Below are positions 2,850 to 12,962 of a DNA stretch of 32,000 nucleotides, piece after piece. A model generated the notes under the pieces. The model was not told the origin of the DNA. It did not search any database and saw only the letters and a program-made list of their open reading frames with translations. The translations under genes were made by a program, and so were the position numbers. Source of the DNA: Methanocaldococcus jannaschii DSM 2661 (GTDB lineage: Archaea > AGJL01 > Methanococci > Methanococcales > Methanocaldococcaceae); assembly GCF_000091665.1 (NCBI RefSeq), contig NC_000909.1:940712-972711 (forward strand). Direction: 5' to 3'. The first letter of the stretch is position 1. The number at the start of each line of letters is the position of its first letter.

Positions 2850-3774
2850 GCTCTCTCCACCTCTTCAAATAATAAATTCCAATGATATTAACAACCAATC
2901 CTATAACAAACAGCACTAAACCAGCAGAGTAGAGGACAGAAGTCATATACTCATACAACACTGCATTTCCAAATTGATTTGCTATCAATGATGATATTGT
3001 ATATCCTGGAGCAAAGAGCTTGTAAGTTAGGTTGAAGGAGTTTCCAATAACCAGTGAAACAGCAACTGTTTCTCCTAAAGCCCTACCAAAAGCCAATATA
3101 AGCCCTGAAATTATGGCTGGTCTTATGTATTTTATTAAAACCTTTGTGGTTTCATATCTTGTTGCTCCTAAAGCAACTAAACCCTCTTTATAAACAGATG
3201 GAATCATTGCATAAGCCTCTCTAATAATAGCTGCTGCAAATGGAGTAACCATTATTCCCAACAAAATTCCTGCTGATAGATAGCAATAACCTGATAATGG
3301 AGGGTAATCAAAGAGTGGAATAAATGAAAAATGTTCATACAAAAATTTCATAATATGGTCTCTTAACAGAGGGACTAATATGAATGCTCCCCATATACCA
3401 TAAATTATTGTTGGAAGTCCTGCCATAATATCTGAAATTACAATTAAAGGATATTTCAGTCTTTTAGGAGCATAATCATTGACAAATATTGCATAGCATA
3501 TAGATAGAGGCAAAGCTATTAAAACAGCAATTGTTGCTGTATATATACTACCCCAAATTGGCGCTGCTAATCCATAAACTTCTTTTGCAGGTTCTTCAGC
3601 CGCTTTCCAAACATTTGTTATAAATAAATCAATACCATATCTCTCAATAGCTGGGAGTGCATTGAAGAAATAAAAGCCTAATATTAAAACAAATAATATA
3701 AACACAACAAATATTGCTGGTAATGTTATTATTTTGAATTCATCTATCTTTCTTAGGAGTTTTTTAATCTCCAT
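2836..3774 (-). CDS. pstC: Phosphate ABC transporter permease PstC
   Basis: Polytopic membrane protein immediately after pstS. The ORF track begins at TTG 3783. I prefer ATG 3774-3772 (MEIKKLLRK...), preceded by an AGGTTGA SD-like sequence. Confidence 0.9.
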   Translation of the reverse strand: MEIKKLLRKIDEFKIITLPAIFVVFILFVLILGFYFFNALPAIERYGIDLFITNVWKAAEEPAKEVYGLAAPIWGSIYTATIAVLIALPLSICYAIFVNDYAPKRLKYPLIVISDIMAGLPTIIYGIWGAFILVPLLRDHIMKFLYEHFSFIPLFDYPPLSGYCYLSAGILLGIMVTPFAAAIIREAYAMIPSVYKEGLVALGATRYETTKVLIKYIRPAIISGLILAFGRALGETVAVSLVIGNSFNLTYKLFAPGYTISSLIANQFGNAVLYEYMTSVLYSAGLVLFVIGLVVNIIGIYYLKRWREHVSH

Positions 3775-3924
3775 GGTTTTCAACCTTTTTTAATCCTTAT
3801 CTTATGGCTTTTATAAGTTCTATTTTAATAAGACTTTCGCAGGATTAAATAATTGTAACATTGTATATTGCTTAATAAAAATATTATTCCCAAATATAAA
3901 ATTTCTTATCTTTAAATTTGGATT

Positions 3925-3941
3925 TAAAAAATATTAAAAAA
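3925..3941 (-). terminator. Oligo-T tracts right after the pstS stop (candidate intra-operon terminator/attenuator)
   Basis: The plus strand shows A6-7 runs at 3925-3931 and 3936-3941. These are T-runs on the coding (minus) strand 7-25 nt after the pstS stop at 3950-3948. Archaeal terminators are oligo-T. Confidence 0.4.
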
Positions 3942-3947
3942 TTAGAT

Positions 3948-5081
3948 TTATTCTTTTATCATATTTACAGCATTTAATCCAATCTTAGCAACATCTTCTG
4001 GTAATCCTACATAACCTGGAGCTAAATGCTCTGGTTTCTGCCCTTCTGTTAATACCCATGTTAAGAAATCTTTTATAGCTTTAGCTTTTTCTGGAGAGTA
4101 GTGCTTACCATTTTTGTTTTCCCAAACTAATAAGTGTGTGAATGCAACTATTGGATAGGCATTGTCTCCAGGGGCATCCAACATCTGCTTTAAATCCTCT
4201 TTGTATCCTTCTGTTGGGTTTGGAATACTTGCCTTAACTGCTGAAACTGCTGCTTTTATTGTTTCATCTGTTGGTTTAACAAATTTACCATTTTTGTTTT
4301 CTAATGCTGCAACTGGAAGTTTTTGTTCTATTGCATATGAAAGCTCAGTATATGCAACTGTATAAGGCGTTGATTTCACTATTGCTACAACACCTGGATT
4401 TCCTTTTCCAGCGACTCCCCTGCCTATATTATCAGTTGGCCAATTAACAGTTTTTCCAGCTCCAACTTTTTCAGCCCATTCCTTACTAATTAAGCTTAGA
4501 TATGTTGTAAATATGGCGGTTGTTCCACTTGCGTCACTTCTATGAACAACGATAATCTTCTCATGTGGGAGTTTATCAGCAATTTCTGGGTTTATTTTTT
4601 TAATTCTTTCATCGTCCCAGTATTCAATCTTACCTAAGAATATATCAGCTAAAACATCCCTACTCAATTTTAAAGTTTTATCTCCAATTTCTGGGATGTT
4701 GTAGGTTACAACCACAGCACCAACAATTTCTGGGAATTGTAATGGTTGGTCTCCTGTTGATAAGAATTTCTTCCACATGCTTTCTTTAACTGGAGGGTCA
4801 GTTCTTCCAATATCAGTTAAACCTTTTGCAAATGCCTCTTGCCCGTATCCTGAACCTCCTCCCTCATACTCAATCTTGACATTAGGATGGGTTTTTTGAT
4901 AATCTTCAATCCATTTCTGGATTTGGTATTTTGGGAATGTTGCCCCTGTAGTCCTAATTATTATGGTACTTGGTTTTTCATTATTTGACGGTTGAGAATT
5001 ACCTCCACCAACACATCCAGCTATTGAAATTACTGGGACTATTAAACACAGCCCCAATATTAATGCCAATATTTTTTTCAC
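3948..5081 (-). CDS. pstS: Phosphate-binding lipoprotein PstS
   Basis: Periplasmic-binding-protein sequence with a signal peptide and lipobox (KKILALILGLCLIVPVISIAGC). The ORF track starts at TTG 5117. GTG 5081-5079 is preceded by GGTGAT (5090-5085), so I place the start there. Confidence 0.9.
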   Translation of the reverse strand: MKKILALILGLCLIVPVISIAGCVGGGNSQPSNNEKPSTIIIRTTGATFPKYQIQKWIEDYQKTHPNVKIEYEGGGSGYGQEAFAKGLTDIGRTDPPVKESMWKKFLSTGDQPLQFPEIVGAVVVTYNIPEIGDKTLKLSRDVLADIFLGKIEYWDDERIKKINPEIADKLPHEKIIVVHRSDASGTTAIFTTYLSLISKEWAEKVGAGKTVNWPTDNIGRGVAGKGNPGVVAIVKSTPYTVAYTELSYAIEQKLPVAALENKNGKFVKPTDETIKAAVSAVKASIPNPTEGYKEDLKQMLDAPGDNAYPIVAFTHLLVWENKNGKHYSPEKAKAIKDFLTWVLTEGQKPEHLAPGYVGLPEDVAKIGLNAVNMIKE

Positions 5082-5102
5082 AGCATCACCTTTTGTAGGT
5101 TG

Positions 5103-5214
5103 TGTGGTGTCATTCAAAACTTTTTTAATGATTTAAGGTATAGATGAACGCCTTCTAAAAGAAGGCGTTCAAAATTTTCATTAGTAGATTTTGTTATTTT
5201 TGAATGACACCATA
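5103..5214. repeat. Palindromic element copy E2 (108-112 bp) in the pstS upstream region
   Basis: Arms TGGTGTCATTCAAAA 5105-5119 and TTTTGAATGACACCA 5198-5212 are a perfect 15-bp inverted repeat (17 bp with one mismatch). Central TGAACGCCTTC(5145-5155)-TAAAA-GAAGGCGTTCA(5161-5171). Shared symmetry centre about 5158. Confidence 0.8.
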
Positions 5215-5347
5215 ATTTACAATAGATTGTAAGATACATAAAGGTATATAAAGTTTTCTATTTTGAATTAAAGTTCATATTTTATGAACATTCAATTTTA
5301 ATAGTTAAAAACTCAATATAAAAAGTAAAACACTTCTTTGTGAAACC

Positions 5348-6232
5348 ATGGAATTCTCAGAATGGACAAAAAATAAAAGAAAGTTAAATAATTTAGAAGA
5401 ATTAAAAAGAGACATCATAGAACAATTTAAAGAAAAAAATGCCTTAGATGAAGGCATTGTAGTTATGGCGAGTGGTGGAAAAGATAGCTCAACAGCAATT
5501 GCCTTAGCTAAGGACTTAGGATTAAATATAGAGTATTTAATACACTTCTATCATAGATGGAGTTGGGATGTATCAAAAAAAATGGTTGAAAAGCTCTCTA
5601 AGAAGTTTGATATCCCAGTGATATTTTACAATATTACAGACGAACTTTTAAAGAGAACTAAGGGGGCTAAGGGTAGTAGTATCTGCAGAATATGTAAAAA
5701 TATTATGAAGGATAAAGCCGTTGATATATCCAAAGAAAAAGGAATTAGAATAATTATGACTGGAGATTCTGCTCTTGAAAAAGTCTCTGGAGCGGTTATG
5801 AACTATCTGAGAGATGTTTATGGAGAGGTTGTATATAACAAAATGGAACTCACTCCAGTCCCACAAAAATATAGCAAAGGAAAAGATAAAGAAGTTTTAT
5901 TCTTTAGACCTTTGATAAGATTAGCTTGTGAGGATGTTTTAAAGCTAATGGATTACTATAATATAGAGATAGAGAGGGCTCATGAGGTAGGTGATAAAAT
6001 TGGATTTTGGAGGGAAGGATGCTGTTTGCAGTATGCTGATGAAAACGCCCTATTAAATGAGAAACTCTTTAATGAACTCTACAAATATAACAAAATAGCC
6101 ACTGAAGTAGCAAAAAAACATGGGTTTAGGGCTTCTATAAAACTACCTTCAAAAAAGATTATGGTAGTGCCCAAAAAAGATGAATATATTACTTTAATCA
6201 AAAACGCTCTGAGGGATGTAGATGAAAGTTAA
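5348..6232 (+). CDS. PP-loop ATP pyrophosphatase superfamily protein (adenine nucleotide alpha-hydrolase fold), function unknown
   Basis: SGGKDS PP-loop at residues 42-47. Cys motifs CRIC and GCC. No further family assignment is possible by eye. Confidence 0.7.
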
Positions 6233-10493: not shown

Positions 10494-10531
10494 TAGTGTC
10501 TTTCAAAAATTCTTAAAATAATAAGACACTA
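10494..10531. terminator. Hairpin between convergent genes (possible bidirectional terminator)
   Basis: TAGTGTCTT 10494-10502 pairs with AAGACACTA 10523-10531 (9 bp). The right arm overlaps the stop codon of the 10529..11020 ORF. Flanks are AT-rich. Confidence 0.35.
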
Positions 10532-11020
10532 ATTATACGCTTCTTCTTTTTGATTTTTTTCTTCATACCTCAGATTTTCTAAATATTTTGAAAACTCTTC
10601 TAAATTCGAAGTACCTATTTTTGATAATGCTTCATTGATTATTATAACCCTTAATTCATTCTCAAGTGTTTTAAGTTTATCATTTAGCTCTTCTATTTCC
10701 TTATTGATGTTCCATCTCACAGATTCAAGATCTTCTGTATCAATTTTTTCAACTGCCTCTAACATTTTAACGATTTTCATGAAAACTGGGATGTTTGTAA
10801 ATTTACTTAATCTTGGCAGTATTGATTTTATAATATCAGCATCTCTTTTGAGATGTTTTAAATTTACATCCAAATTTTCAAAATCTTCAAGGATATTTTC
10901 TAAATAACTAATTTCATCTTTTGTTTTTATATATTCCCTTAATAGATCTCTTAGTCTTTCTTTCTCTTTAAAATTTTTATCTTTTAATAATATTAGCTCA
11001 GCTACTCTCTCAATCTCCAT
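10529..11020 (-). CDS. Hypothetical coiled-coil protein
   Basis: ORF track 163 aa, K/E/L-rich heptad-like sequence. GGTGA SD lies 7 nt upstream of ATG 11020. Confidence 0.6.
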   Translation of the reverse strand: MEIERVAELILLKDKNFKEKERLRDLLREYIKTKDEISYLENILEDFENLDVNLKHLKRDADIIKSILPRLSKFTNIPVFMKIVKMLEAVEKIDTEDLESVRWNINKEIEELNDKLKTLENELRVIIINEALSKIGTSNLEEFSKYLENLRYEEKNQKEEAYN

Positions 11021-11106
11021 TAACTATTCACCATTAATTGTTGTTAAGAAAACTCCAATGTTTTAGCTCGGAGGGGATTTAGGAAGGTGAATAAGCAAGC
11101 ATAATT

Positions 11107-11114
11107 TTTATATA
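11107..11114 (+). promoter_or_regulatory. TATA box (TTTATATA) for the downstream GC-rich RNA
   Basis: The TTTATATA centre is about 27-30 nt upstream of the first G-rich residues at 11141, the spacing expected for an archaeal promoter. Confidence 0.5.
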
Positions 11115-11140
11115 TTCGATTTAGTGTATAATTTTTATTT

Positions 11141-11260
11141 GAGGGCTGTCTGACCCAGCCCGATGAGCTGAACCTGCCCTGTGACCTACCGGCGACGGTA
11201 GGGAGAAGGGTGTTCCCCGTGGGAACCTCCGAGCTTTAGCTCGGAGAGGAGGTCAGCTTT
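11141..11260 (+). ncRNA. GC-rich structured small RNA of unknown family (high-GC island in an AT-rich hyperthermophile genome)
   Basis: 74 of 116 nt (11141-11256) are G/C by hand count. There are four hairpins inside a closing helix, a GCGA tetraloop, G-U pairs that only work on the plus strand, an upstream TATA box and a 3' T-run (11258-11261). Confidence 0.65.
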
Positions 11261-12962
11261 TAACATTTCTTATATTTACTAAAGCTCCATGCTTTGCCTT
11301 TTTCATTTCAAAACCACTCATCAAAGCTCTTCCAATCCCTAAAAATGTATCATCTTTAATTAAGACGACTTCATCATTATAGGAAATATTTTCATTGCAA
11401 TCAACAAATCCGGGAGGAAAGAGAGAACCTTTTTTAATTTCATAATTTACTTCAATATAGTTGATGTCTTTTCCCCCACTGTTCCACAACAACTCTCCCC
11501 CACTTAAGGTTAAGATAAGCAAACCATTTTTTGGATTTATTGATGCTATTTGTTGATTTTTATTGTTAATTTTTGTAAATATTTGCCCCTTATGATTTAT
11601 AAATATTTCGTTTGGTATAAAGTTTATGCCAAATTGAAACTCTGCAAGTTGCTGAATATTATGAATTCTTTGTCCCTTTTTATTTATATCTTTACTTTTT
11701 GTTAGTTCTTTATACTTTTTTAGTGTGTCAGTTAAATTTTTTAAAGCTTCTTCTGATGTTGGATTTCCTTTTGATGTAATAACAATATCATCCAACTCCA
11801 AAATCTCAAGGTAGTGTTCTGGAAGATGAGCTATAACAATATAATCATCAAATTTCTCCTTAACCTTCTTTAAGAAGTTTTTTAAACAGTTGTTTATAAG
11901 CTCTATCTCTTCAAAACTCCATTCTCCAGTTACTGGAATGTCATAATTGACTAACCTTTCCAAAGCTCTCGGCACTAATCCGTAGGGAGATGTTAATATA
12001 ACTTCCTCAACAACAACTTTTGCAGATTTTATCGCCTTTATAAATTTTTGGTGAGATTGGGAAATTGAGTAGGGCTTTTTTGATGAGCAAGGTAATAAAA
12101 CTATAATGTTTGAATACGGCTCATAGTTATCTAATCTTTCCAAATATTTTTTAACCTCTGGAATATTAATGTTGGTTGTTACAATAATCTTATTTTCTTT
12201 TGATAACGGGATGTTTCTTAAATCTGGCTCATATCTTCTATAATTTGCCCACAAATATGGATGAGATACAGCTGTTTCTTCAACAACATTTCTTAGAAAT
12301 CCATTTTTTATAGCTATCCTAACTTCTTCTAAGATTTCCTCATAAACTTTTTTATTGTTATTATATAATTCCTCAAAACTAAAGCTATCTACCTTTACAG
12401 CCCTATTTTTTGTAAATTTGTAGCCCATTGATGCATATAACTTAGCTAATGAGTCATCAAAGTAATCAACGCCTATATAAGCCAATAGTGGAATTTCCCA
12501 AGGAAATACAGCTGGGGAGTAAATAGCTGAGTTTGGAGATATTTTTTCTCTAATTTTTGGTATTATTTGAAGTTCTTTTCTTTCTATCAACCTTCTACCA
12601 TCTGCTATGATATATAAATCAGCATCTTCCAATTCAATTAAATCAACGTGCTTACCAAAGTTTAGTATTTGATATTTAAATACATTACCCTTATATTTAA
12701 CAGTTCCAATAAAAGATTTTTTAAATATTGAGGTTAGTTCTCTAAATGTATCAAAAGGCATCTTTATGCCATCAGCTTTAACATAGGACTTTCGCAGTTC
12801 ATATATGGATTTGGAATTTGGACACCTAAAAGGTGTCATTATACCATAAAAAATTTTTTCCTGCGAAAGTCCTATGACATCAATGTCAATTAGCTTAGGG
12901 GTTAGTTCTTTATCTTCCTCTTTGCACAGTCTTCCAATATCATAGGCAATTGGTTCGAGCAT
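11253..12962 (-). CDS. arcS: Archaeosine synthase ArcS (tRNA preQ0-15 modifying enzyme), with C-terminal PUA domain
   Basis: The ArcS signature PC-X3-KPY-X2-S-X2-H is present as PCSSKKPYSISQSH. The C-terminal PUA-like domain is ...VVLIKDDTFLGIGRALMSGFEMKKAKHGALVNIRNV. Confidence 0.85.
   Translation of the reverse strand: MLEPIAYDIGRLCKEEDKELTPKLIDIDVIGLSQEKIFYGIMTPFRCPNSKSIYELRKSYVKADGIKMPFDTFRELTSIFKKSFIGTVKYKGNVFKYQILNFGKHVDLIELEDADLYIIADGRRLIERKELQIIPKIREKISPNSAIYSPAVFPWEIPLLAYIGVDYFDDSLAKLYASMGYKFTKNRAVKVDSFSFEELYNNNKKVYEEILEEVRIAIKNGFLRNVVEETAVSHPYLWANYRRYEPDLRNIPLSKENKIIVTTNINIPEVKKYLERLDNYEPYSNIIVLLPCSSKKPYSISQSHQKFIKAIKSAKVVVEEVILTSPYGLVPRALERLVNYDIPVTGEWSFEEIELINNCLKNFLKKVKEKFDDYIVIAHLPEHYLEILELDDIVITSKGNPTSEEALKNLTDTLKKYKELTKSKDINKKGQRIHNIQQLAEFQFGINFIPNEIFINHKGQIFTKINNKNQQIASINPKNGLLILTLSGGELLWNSGGKDINYIEVNYEIKKGSLFPPGFVDCNENISYNDEVVLIKDDTFLGIGRALMSGFEMKKAKHGALVNIRNVKS
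12782..12876. repeat. Palindromic element copy E3 (95 bp) inside the arcS coding sequence
   Basis: CATAGGACTTTCGCAG 12782-12797 and CTGCGAAAGTCCTATG 12861-12876 are a perfect 16-bp inverted repeat. Central GACACC(12821-26)-TAAAA-GGTGTC(12832-37). Spacers are 23 nt each and the symmetry centre is 12829. Confidence 0.8.

Follow-up and report, generated by a model that had tools for sequence, protein, structure and literature searches.

HgcC of Methanocaldococcus jannaschii, a Catalogued GC-rich RNA, as the Probable Guide RNA of a tnpB-less IS200/IS605-type Element

This analysis concerns a GC-rich island on the plus strand, positions 11141-11256, of a 32-kb stretch of the chromosome of Methanocaldococcus jannaschii DSM 2661 (NC_000909.1, positions 940,712 to 972,711; the whole stretch is referred to as the window, and positions are numbered within it). 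The island is the RNA already catalogued in Rfam as HgcC, and it lies at the end of a 225-bp insertion that meets arcS, the gene for archaeosine synthase alpha, head-on. It is probable, at odds of about three in four, that the island is the guide-RNA gene of a non-autonomous IS200/IS605/TnpB element, and the best explanation for HgcC as a family is that it is the guide-RNA scaffold (omega-RNA, or right-end RNA) of an archaeal lineage of TnpB-carrying IS200/IS605-type transposons. As an RNA the island holds nothing new, since the Rfam family was known; what is added is a concrete and testable function for a family whose function was called unknown in papers up to 2017, together with resolution of the locus to the base (a 225-bp element, a TCAC target and empty sites in relatives), which accounts for the head-on overlap with arcS as replacement of a stop codon by a transposon end.

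An earlier note on this DNA, made by eye from the sequence, had counted 74 G+C in the 116 nucleotides and described the island as the only strong one present. A count over all 116-nt stretches of the window bears this out, the island being the GC-richest (74/116, 63.8%; z = 5.2), with a runner-up of 49.1% and a window mean of 31.9%. The plus strand has a folding energy of −67.6 kcal/mol, as compared with −43.7 ± 3.5 kcal/mol for 200 dinucleotide shuffles, none of which folded as well (z = −6.8), and the minus strand has an energy of −62.5 kcal/mol (z = −5.6). The covariance scan against Rfam that the note had proposed gave, for the whole window and Rfam 15, a single match: HgcC (RF00062), positions 11141-11269 on the plus strand, at 150.9 bits and an E value of 5.7e-36, covering model positions 1-130 of 130 against a gathering score of 50 bits. 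No further Rfam family was matched in the window even at E ≤ 1, including the C/D, H/ACA and sot families, and there were no tRNAs, in keeping with the note's finding of no tRNA, signal recognition particle RNA, RNase P or C/D-box hallmarks. Its suggestion that the island might be an Hgc RNA was therefore correct, and its description of the RNA as unassigned was not, RF00062 being already in Rfam. The positions and sequences that it gave for CUGACC (11150-55), GGUCAG (11251-56), hairpins 2-4, and the GCGA and UUUA loops are all exact; the window RNA is a full-length member of the family, and three of the four nested helices of the Rfam consensus are as the note drew them. It should be noted that the consensus structure in Rfam is drawn without a pseudoknot and takes in about 13 nt of flank that does not belong to the element.

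The features of the locus, in order of position, are as follows.

10529-11020, minus strand: 163-aa open reading frame (ORF) with no Pfam family; the next gene after arcS, with the element in between.
11028-11031, plus strand: TCAC, a target motif resembling a transposon-adjacent motif (TAM) and adjoining the left end of the element, as judged from empty sites and the T[C/T]AC left flanks.
11032-11256, plus strand: tnpB-less IS200/IS605-type element of 225 bp, resembling a PATE (palindrome-associated transposable element) or miniature inverted-repeat transposable element, with left end, promoter, HgcC scaffold and right end.
11032-11076, plus strand: left end, CATTAATTGTTGTTAAGAAAA, followed by a degenerate hairpin, CTCC (11053-56) with GGAG (11070-73).
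11107-11114, plus strand: TATA box TTTATATA, the predicted RNA-gene promoter, with its first base 34 nt before the 5' G.
11141-11256, plus strand: HgcC RNA scaffold, 116 nt, read as a guide scaffold of the omega-RNA type from the Rfam match, fold and covariation.
11143-11161, plus strand: hairpin A, a helix of the Rfam structure, GGGCUG (11143-48) with CAGCCC (11156-61), loop U-CUGACC (11149-55).
11150-11155, plus strand: CUGACC (−107 to −102 in the scaffold), 5' strand of the proposed pseudoknot.
11162-11174, plus strand: single-stranded linker, GAUGA (11162-66) and AACC (11171-74), invariant or nearly invariant columns in two alignments.
11176-11211, plus strand: hairpin 2, an optional module, GCCCU/AGGGU, symmetric GUGA/GAGA loop, CCUACCG/CGGUAGG, GCGA tetraloop.
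11212-11226, plus strand: hairpin 3, GUUCCC/GGGAAC, invariant in sequence.
11227-11246, plus strand: hairpin 4, the right-end hairpin, CUCCGAGC-UUUA-GCUCGGAG, with changes on both sides in 5 of 8 pairs.
11247-11256, plus strand: right-end tail AGGAGGUCAG, 10 nt, the last six being the 3' strand of the proposed pseudoknot; G11256 is the final base of the element.
11257-11272, plus strand: candidate guide-equivalent flank CUUUUAACAUUUCUUA..., antisense to the final arcS codons and placed, by analogy, like the roughly 16-nt guide of TnpB.
11253-12962, minus strand: arcS, 569 aa, with DUF5591 and PUA domains; homologues are annotated as archaeosine synthase subunit alpha.

The insertion can be read directly from relatives in which the site is empty. 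In the collections searched, the exact ArcS sequence occurs only in Logan assemblies of sequencing runs (ERR9765749, SRR4245584 and others), and the best ArcS match in the protein database is 85% identical. The gene order ABC transporter, arcS, small ORF, HD protein is common to M. fervens and two Methanocaldococcus sp. assemblies. In these three relatives the small ORF either lies 5-7 nt from arcS or shares 4 nt with it, whereas in the window the two are separated by 232 nt. In the sense of arcS, the empty junction of the three relatives reads GTTAAAAG|GTGA and ArcS ends in NVKR*; in the occupied junction GTTAAAAG is followed by the 225 bp of the element, CTGACC first (CTGACCTCC...CAATTAATG), and then by GTGAATAG, and ArcS ends in NVKS*, its last residue having changed from R to S. 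On the plus strand, TTCAC|element|CTTTTAAC in the window corresponds to TTCAC|CTTTTAAC in the empty sites, so that there is no target-site duplication, and the element has no terminal inverted repeats. In the empty site L152, TCAC is followed by a perfect match to the flank 11257-11272; M. fervens has one mismatch. The occupied/empty junction was predicted before the loci of the relatives were examined; the empty sites place the boundary at 11256|11257, the element boundaries agree with copy-to-copy alignments, and a covariance model built for this study detected no HgcC in the three empty arcS loci. The original arcS stop lay within GTGA, the minus-strand complement of the TCAC at 11028-11031, and the present stop, TGA at 11255-11253 inside GGUCAG, is supplied by the element and occupies the same position in the frame. 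These comparisons show that a 225-bp element inserted directly 3' of TCAC, onto the former arcS stop, without target duplication. The earlier note had rightly seen the 3' end of the RNA meet the arcS stop head-on; its interpretation, that the two transcripts are mutually antisense, gives way to a scar of transposon insertion in which the end of the element replaces the original stop.

The same boundaries recur in other copies and define the orientation of the element. The left flank reads T[C/T]AC in 16 of 17 independent insertions, with unrelated sequence further out, and the flanks following GGTCAG share nothing. Cleavage on the left falls 19-21 nt before a hairpin similar to hairpin 4 of the same element, and the right end consists of hairpin 4 and exactly 10 nt, reading TCAG, one base off the TAM-like motif. 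IS608 inserts 3' of a TTAC-like tetranucleotide without duplication and is cleaved about 19-21 nt before its left hairpin and 10 nt after its right hairpin. The window element resembles IS608 in its insertion and in both distances, and its right-end tetranucleotide resembles the target without being equal to it; window-type elements differ from IS608 in having no tnpA (they are IS1341-like, with tnpB only) and in the inversion of tnpB. No tnpA was seen in any element retrieved, the host genome being outside that search. The conserved left flank, the unrelated right flanks and the IS608-like geometry together indicate that the HgcC strand is the top strand of the transposon, and on this assignment HgcC RNA would cross the right end and continue into the flank, as is required of a TnpB guide RNA. 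The opposite assignment, with the tnpB strand on top, CTGAC as TAM and the guide at the 3' end of tnpB, was rejected because the flanks at the HgcC end are unrelated and T[C/T]AC is conserved at the opposite end, because the hairpin-to-end distances fit IS608 only in the HgcC orientation, and because the same right-end module forms the 3' end of canonical sense-strand tnpB genes. Subterminal hairpins at both ends on the same strand, presence/absence polymorphism and dispersed copies accord with an ORF-less IS200/IS605 element.

This target preference bears on the overlap with arcS. The convergent gene stops at the TGA in the terminal CTGACC in 3 of 5 Methanocaldococcus-type copies (the window, L002 and L017); in L011 the convergent gene has its own TAA 2 nt outside the boundary, and the L014 ORF continues for 38 nt within the element. 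The convergent genes are unrelated, encoding ArcS, Cbf5, a KH protein, ArgRS and a hydantoinase. Because the complement of the target, GTAA or GTGA, contains a stop codon and the end of the element restores one, such insertions would be tolerated in compact genomes, and the head-on overlap of stop codons appears to result from target choice combined with tolerated insertion. In L024, L025, L038 and L149 (Archaeoglobus/Thermococcales-type), the inverted tnpB ORF extends to the very tip of the element, and its TGA stop corresponds to the TCA of the TCAC boundary motif read on the other strand; the tnpB stop in these elements may be supplied by the target site itself.

Within the element, the left-end hairpin contains TTTAGCTCGGAG (11062-73), 12 nt that repeat the 3' half of hairpin 4 (11235-46) exactly and in direct orientation, and the left- and right-end versions of this repeat vary together between lineages (GCTCGG in the window, GGGCGG in a metagenome-assembled genome (MAG)). 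Homologous left ends are present in L011, L002, L014, L021, L022 and L104; the hairpin is perfect in L021 (CTCCGAGCTTTAGCTCGGAG) and in A. profundus-type elements and has 4 bp in the window, and the covariance model gives weak same-strand matches at left ends. The TATA box that the earlier note placed at 11107-14 is exact, and in most window-type copies, with or without tnpB, a TATA-like box begins 27-34 nt upstream of the 5' end of the RNA (GAGGG). Its presence irrespective of tnpB suggests that HgcC is an independent transcription unit and not processed tnpB mRNA. The note's proposal of a structured plus-strand RNA gene with its own TATA box is supported.

The link to TnpB comes from related loci, which were retrieved in three ways. 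A strict 22-base pattern applied to species-representative genomes gave four true matches, in one MAG, and 16 chance matches in GC-rich bacteria. This Methanocaldococcaceae MAG has its four HgcC copies at unrelated sites, and their identity starts sharply at TTAC|CATAAATTG... and stops right after GGTCAG. One of them, L014, is a 1.37-kb element with a window-type left end, a gene for a 371-aa TnpB, and HgcC; tnpB is on the opposite strand, the left end lies just past its 3' end, and HgcC is 76 nt from the TnpB start. Four homologues of TnpB (45-79% identity) were found in M. bathoardescens, a Methanococci MAG, A. profundus and P. kukulkanii, and at 4/4 of these loci HgcC (83-123 bits) lies 55-125 nt upstream on the opposite strand, so that HgcC adjoins tnpB in 5/5 protein-anchored loci. 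In the four loci found through the protein, as elsewhere, GAGGAGGTCAG is invariant and the flanks diverge directly after it; since these loci were found without the DNA pattern, both properties are independent of it. A metagenome scan with a looser HgcC-core pattern then gave 120 loci, of which about 10 were chance matches and were discarded. The loci were classified together with those retrieved earlier by a TnpB hidden Markov model (HMM) made from 120 homologues, which replaced tblastn with clade TnpBs because the latter missed most of the distant TnpBs. In 65 loci, a same-strand TnpB ORF overlaps the RNA, as in characterized TnpB guide RNAs, and stops at the UAG in the loop of hairpin 4, 17 nt before GGTCAG; in 13, HgcC is divergent from a compact tnpB with intact RuvC motifs; and in 22, including the window locus and its Logan copies, there is no tnpB within at least 1.3 kb upstream. 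The versions without tnpB are 192-259 bp long and form two subfamilies. In all copies (about 120 related loci) conservation ends exactly after GGTCAG, with unrelated sequence beyond. Against HgcC, RNAs of the first, canonical class reach 30-47 bits, and several of them reach 31-46 bits with sot0042 (RF02656) as well; these scores are all below threshold, and the RNAs link the two families. A blastn search with the scaffold in plasmid and phage collections gave no match, and a pattern scan of viral contigs gave one chance match.

The associated TnpB clade keeps the RuvC motifs GVDLG, VLE[NK]L and DRDLNA[AS] and the zinc ribbon; 24 of 37 clade TnpBs fit every one of the strict motif patterns, and the third motif is found in 36 of 37. 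With these intact the protein looks like a nuclease and not like a dead repressor of the TldR type, and a guide RNA for a nuclease-dead TnpB was rejected as a candidate for HgcC on the same ground.

Some of the retrieved loci have additional features. In L022 (Methanococci MAG, Ga0072504_104375), a second transposon at 4263-6200, with an MJ0013-family TnpB-like gene and a MerR/resolvase serine recombinase (IS607-type), lies directly downstream of the HgcC-TnpB element. L036 has a partial second right-end-like match (1605-1667), 12 nt past HgcC, and L092 has two HgcC copies on opposite strands (1702-1824 and 4186-4304); both arrangements may represent tandem or nested insertions. A third arrangement, with a distant TnpB ORF downstream of HgcC and convergent with it, is found in L044 (948-1550) and L047 (219-1139), where the TnpB probably belongs to an adjacent, unrelated element. 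The TnpBs of the canonical layout are unusually long, about 450-530 aa (L053, 36-1628; L127, 53-1720), and the HgcC-like core linked to them is about 92 nt; these loci are mostly from hot-spring metagenomes, and many have identical flanks, being the same insertion sampled repeatedly.

To examine the fold, 31 distinct window-type scaffolds were aligned with MAFFT, blind to structure. In hairpins 2-4 and CUGACC/GGUCAG taken together, 92.8% of the cells are paired, as opposed to 41-49% when the partner strand is slid, and double-sided changes number 111 cells as opposed to 11-23; none of 500 shuffles reached the observed values. Hairpins 2, 3 and 4 are as the earlier note had them, the first and last with changes on both sides and hairpin 3 invariant. 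In hairpin 2, both-sided changes occur in 7/7 pairs of the upper stem and 3/5 of the lower. This module is absent from the tnpB-overlapping class, and in A. profundus L024 (CP001857, 2842-2947) its upper part (about 20 nt) is deleted and the rest kept, beside an intact tnpB, which indicates that the purine-loop module is dispensable. In hairpin 3, 5 of 6 pairs never vary in the 31 sequences; GGAACC is kept in the tnpB-overlapping class too, but the pattern used to search for that class contained it. G-U pairs are frequent in the conserved helices (alignment columns 93/109, for example, are UG in 16 sequences and CG in 12), and with an Rfam match on the plus strand only they uphold the earlier choice of plus as the sense strand. 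Near the 5' end the structure differs from that first drawn. The MAFFT alignment and the covariance model made from it place the 5' arm of hairpin A one column off, and this helix was therefore counted by an anchored script: 180 of 186 cells are paired across the 31 sequences, and pair 5 occurs as five standard pair types. The helix originally proposed for this region (hairpin 1, CAGC 11156-59 with GCUG 11167-70) is paired in 24% of cells, and covariation supports hairpin A in its place.

The helix CUGACC/GGUCAG is paired in 100% of cells, its only variants being A to G (three times) and C to U (twice), all of which keep wobble pairs. The strands named in the earlier note may thus pair, but not as a nested closing helix: CUGACC sits in the loop of hairpin A, and its pairing with GGUCAG would make a pseudoknot, with which the data are consistent although they do not prove it. 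The closing helix of the minimum-free-energy structure (GAGCUGA.CC with GG..UCAGCUU) was considered and rejected, as other copies have ACACCA or CCCA in place of GCUGA.

The omega-RNA of ISDra2 TnpB has a 116-nt scaffold before the guide, in which nucleotides −6 to −2 pair with −102 to −106 (Karvelis 2021; Nakagawa 2023). The window scaffold is also 116 nt and, with GGUCAG at −6 to −1 and CUGACC at −107 to −102, would have the same pseudoknot register; in both, the scaffold ends at the right end of the transposon, with a right-end hairpin before a short tail, and flank follows, as the guide in ISDra2 and as the candidate guide here. The two RNAs have no detectable sequence similarity. Further differences are that the window-type RNA lies outside tnpB and has a predicted TATA promoter of its own, that tnpB of the full-length window-type relatives occupies the opposite strand, reading outward across the left end, and that the TAM of ISDra2 is TTGAT, whereas the TAM-like motif here is T[C/T]AC. 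The haloarchaeal sotRNAs (RF02656, RF02657), of which the sot0042 family is now called omega-RNA, are likewise right-end RNAs of archaeal IS1341-type tnpB elements; the window RNA scores below threshold for sot0042, and the 5' half of the scaffold differs. In Halobacterium salinarum, the PATE-derived VNG_R0052, a tnpB-less fusion of left and right ends, is likewise transcribed. HgcC was originally found by a GC-content screen of AT-rich hyperthermophiles. Among later papers, HgcC1-3 of T. kodakarensis were reported to begin within transposase genes in the sense direction (Jaeger 2014), and a tetraloop motif resembling the right end was described as common to HgcC and IS1341 tnpB-associated transcripts (Gomes-Filho 2015); both are cited as earlier sightings of tnpB-associated RNAs (Karvelis 2021). 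Within the literature searched, HgcC and TnpB are mentioned together only in Gomes-Filho 2015.

Taken with these likenesses, the data suggest the following course of events. The window element would derive from the TnpB-carrying transposon by loss of tnpB, keeping the left end, the TATA promoter and the 116-nt scaffold. Transcription from its promoter would yield the scaffold, folded into hairpin A, hairpins 2-4 and the pseudoknot, with the adjoining flank as guide, and this RNA would be loaded by a trans-supplied TnpB from the associated clade. The loaded TnpB would cut a copy of the site that lacks the element (TCAC followed by CTTTTAACATTT...), and repair from the occupied copy would restore the element; the occupied site would be protected because its right end presents TCAG and not TCAC. 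A role of this kind, in homing or retention, is established for TnpB in bacteria. In the divergent layout, the RNA with its own TATA box would face the right end, and tnpB, inverted, would read through the left end with its stop at the tip. A broader proposal, for which the chances seem slightly better than even, is that HgcC serves as guide RNA to a hyperthermophile TnpB clade whose guide and nuclease genes are kept apart and transcribed divergently, and that "guide-only" mini-elements of 190-260 bp, the window element among them, spread and are serviced in trans. Neither separate divergent genes nor guide-only mini-elements were found described in the literature searched. If true, this would be a natural split of guide and nuclease genes within a transposon and would readily provide thermostable pairs of TnpB and guide whose motif, T[C/T]AC, is defined; if confirmed, it would bear on how guide RNAs became independent genes in the passage from TnpB to CRISPR-Cas12.

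Several observations weigh against the identification of the island as a TnpB guide-RNA gene. CUGACC/GGUCAG has no double-sided change, because GGUCAG is invariant, and this invariance could equally reflect a site of DNA cleavage by the transposase. The pattern used for the metagenome set fixed CGATGA, GGAACC and GAGGAGGTCAG, so that their conservation in that set is partly circular. A run of four T residues (11258-61), 2 nt past the scaffold, could end transcripts with a guide that is too short. The window copy is neither next to nor overlapping a tnpB, its neighbors being arcS and the 163-aa ORF, and no ORF of the 32-kb window has a TnpB HMM match (E ≤ 10); no cognate TnpB was traced to M. 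jannaschii in a search that did not cover its complete genome, and two TnpB homologues present only in Logan proved to come from other sequencing runs. Finally, tnpB of the window-type clade is inverted relative to the RNA, unlike the characterized arrangement, the canonical sense overlap with the 3' end of tnpB being found only in the more distant class.

The main alternative for the present-day role of the RNA is that the insertion is dead, having no matching TnpB or Y1 transposase, and that HgcC is transcribed but functionless. This agrees with the guide-RNA reading on origin and differs from it only on present function; in the absence of a matching TnpB, the RNA would indeed be an expressed relic. 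We regard this as unlikely, although it deserves to be taken seriously. The lack of a TnpB in the window or traced to the organism, the degenerate left-end hairpin (CTCC/GGAG only, as compared with the perfect hairpin of L021) and the T run directly after the scaffold are what a relic would show, whereas the scaffold helices, TATA box and invariant motifs are all intact, the Rfam score of 150.9 bits is higher than that of every other copy examined, and expression of HgcC was verified by northern blot according to a second-hand statement in Jaeger 2014.

It is considerably less probable that HgcC is a domesticated regulatory RNA independent of TnpB, acting antisense on the 3' end of arcS or the arcS-ORF163 operon, or in trans as a small RNA. 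A 3' extension of the RNA would be complementary to the last arcS codons, the insertion splits a tight gene pair, and overexpression of the PATE-derived RNA altered growth of Halobacterium (Gomes-Filho 2015). However, the convergent overlap recurs in another genome and at the unrelated genes for ArgRS, Cbf5, hydantoinase and the KH protein; target choice (GTAA and GTGA containing stop codons) and survivorship explain it; and because the site is empty in three close relatives, a conserved arcS-linked role is not indicated.

The model drawn from the earlier note, in which a new class of ribonucleoprotein RNA has nested hairpins and an L7Ae-binding K-turn, is very improbable. The GUGA/GAGA loop has the potential for tandem G-A pairs, and UGA on its 5' strand is at least 90% conserved, but a K-turn is defined by an asymmetric 3-nt bulge followed by tandem G-A pairs, and this loop is symmetric (4 × 4) and has no such bulge. 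The L7Ae candidate is also left unsupported by the loss of the upper part of hairpin 2 in L024 and of the module in the tnpB-overlapping class, by the lack of any C/D or H/ACA match at E ≤ 1, and by the failure of hairpin 1 to be conserved. That the island is merely a structured arcS 3' untranslated region or terminator on the minus strand can be virtually dismissed, for although that strand also folds well, the Rfam match is to the plus strand only, the conserved G-U pairs would turn into C-A on the minus strand, the TATA box has the orientation of a plus-strand promoter, and the entire segment is absent downstream of arcS in relatives.

Two further observations concern the neighborhood of the insertion. 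The element separates the formerly tight arcS-ORF163 pair, and the 163-aa ORF starts 11 nt past its left end. On the minus strand, TATATAAA (the complement of 11107-14) lies about 87 nt upstream of the ATG of this ORF; since the same spacer must drive the divergent tnpB in full-length relatives, a residual tnpB promoter in the element may drive the 163-aa ORF. In M. fervens (L151, CP001696), an IS1595-family transposase pair (3630-4535) lies just past the small ORF, and the arcS neighborhood has thus been struck by different mobile elements in different species.

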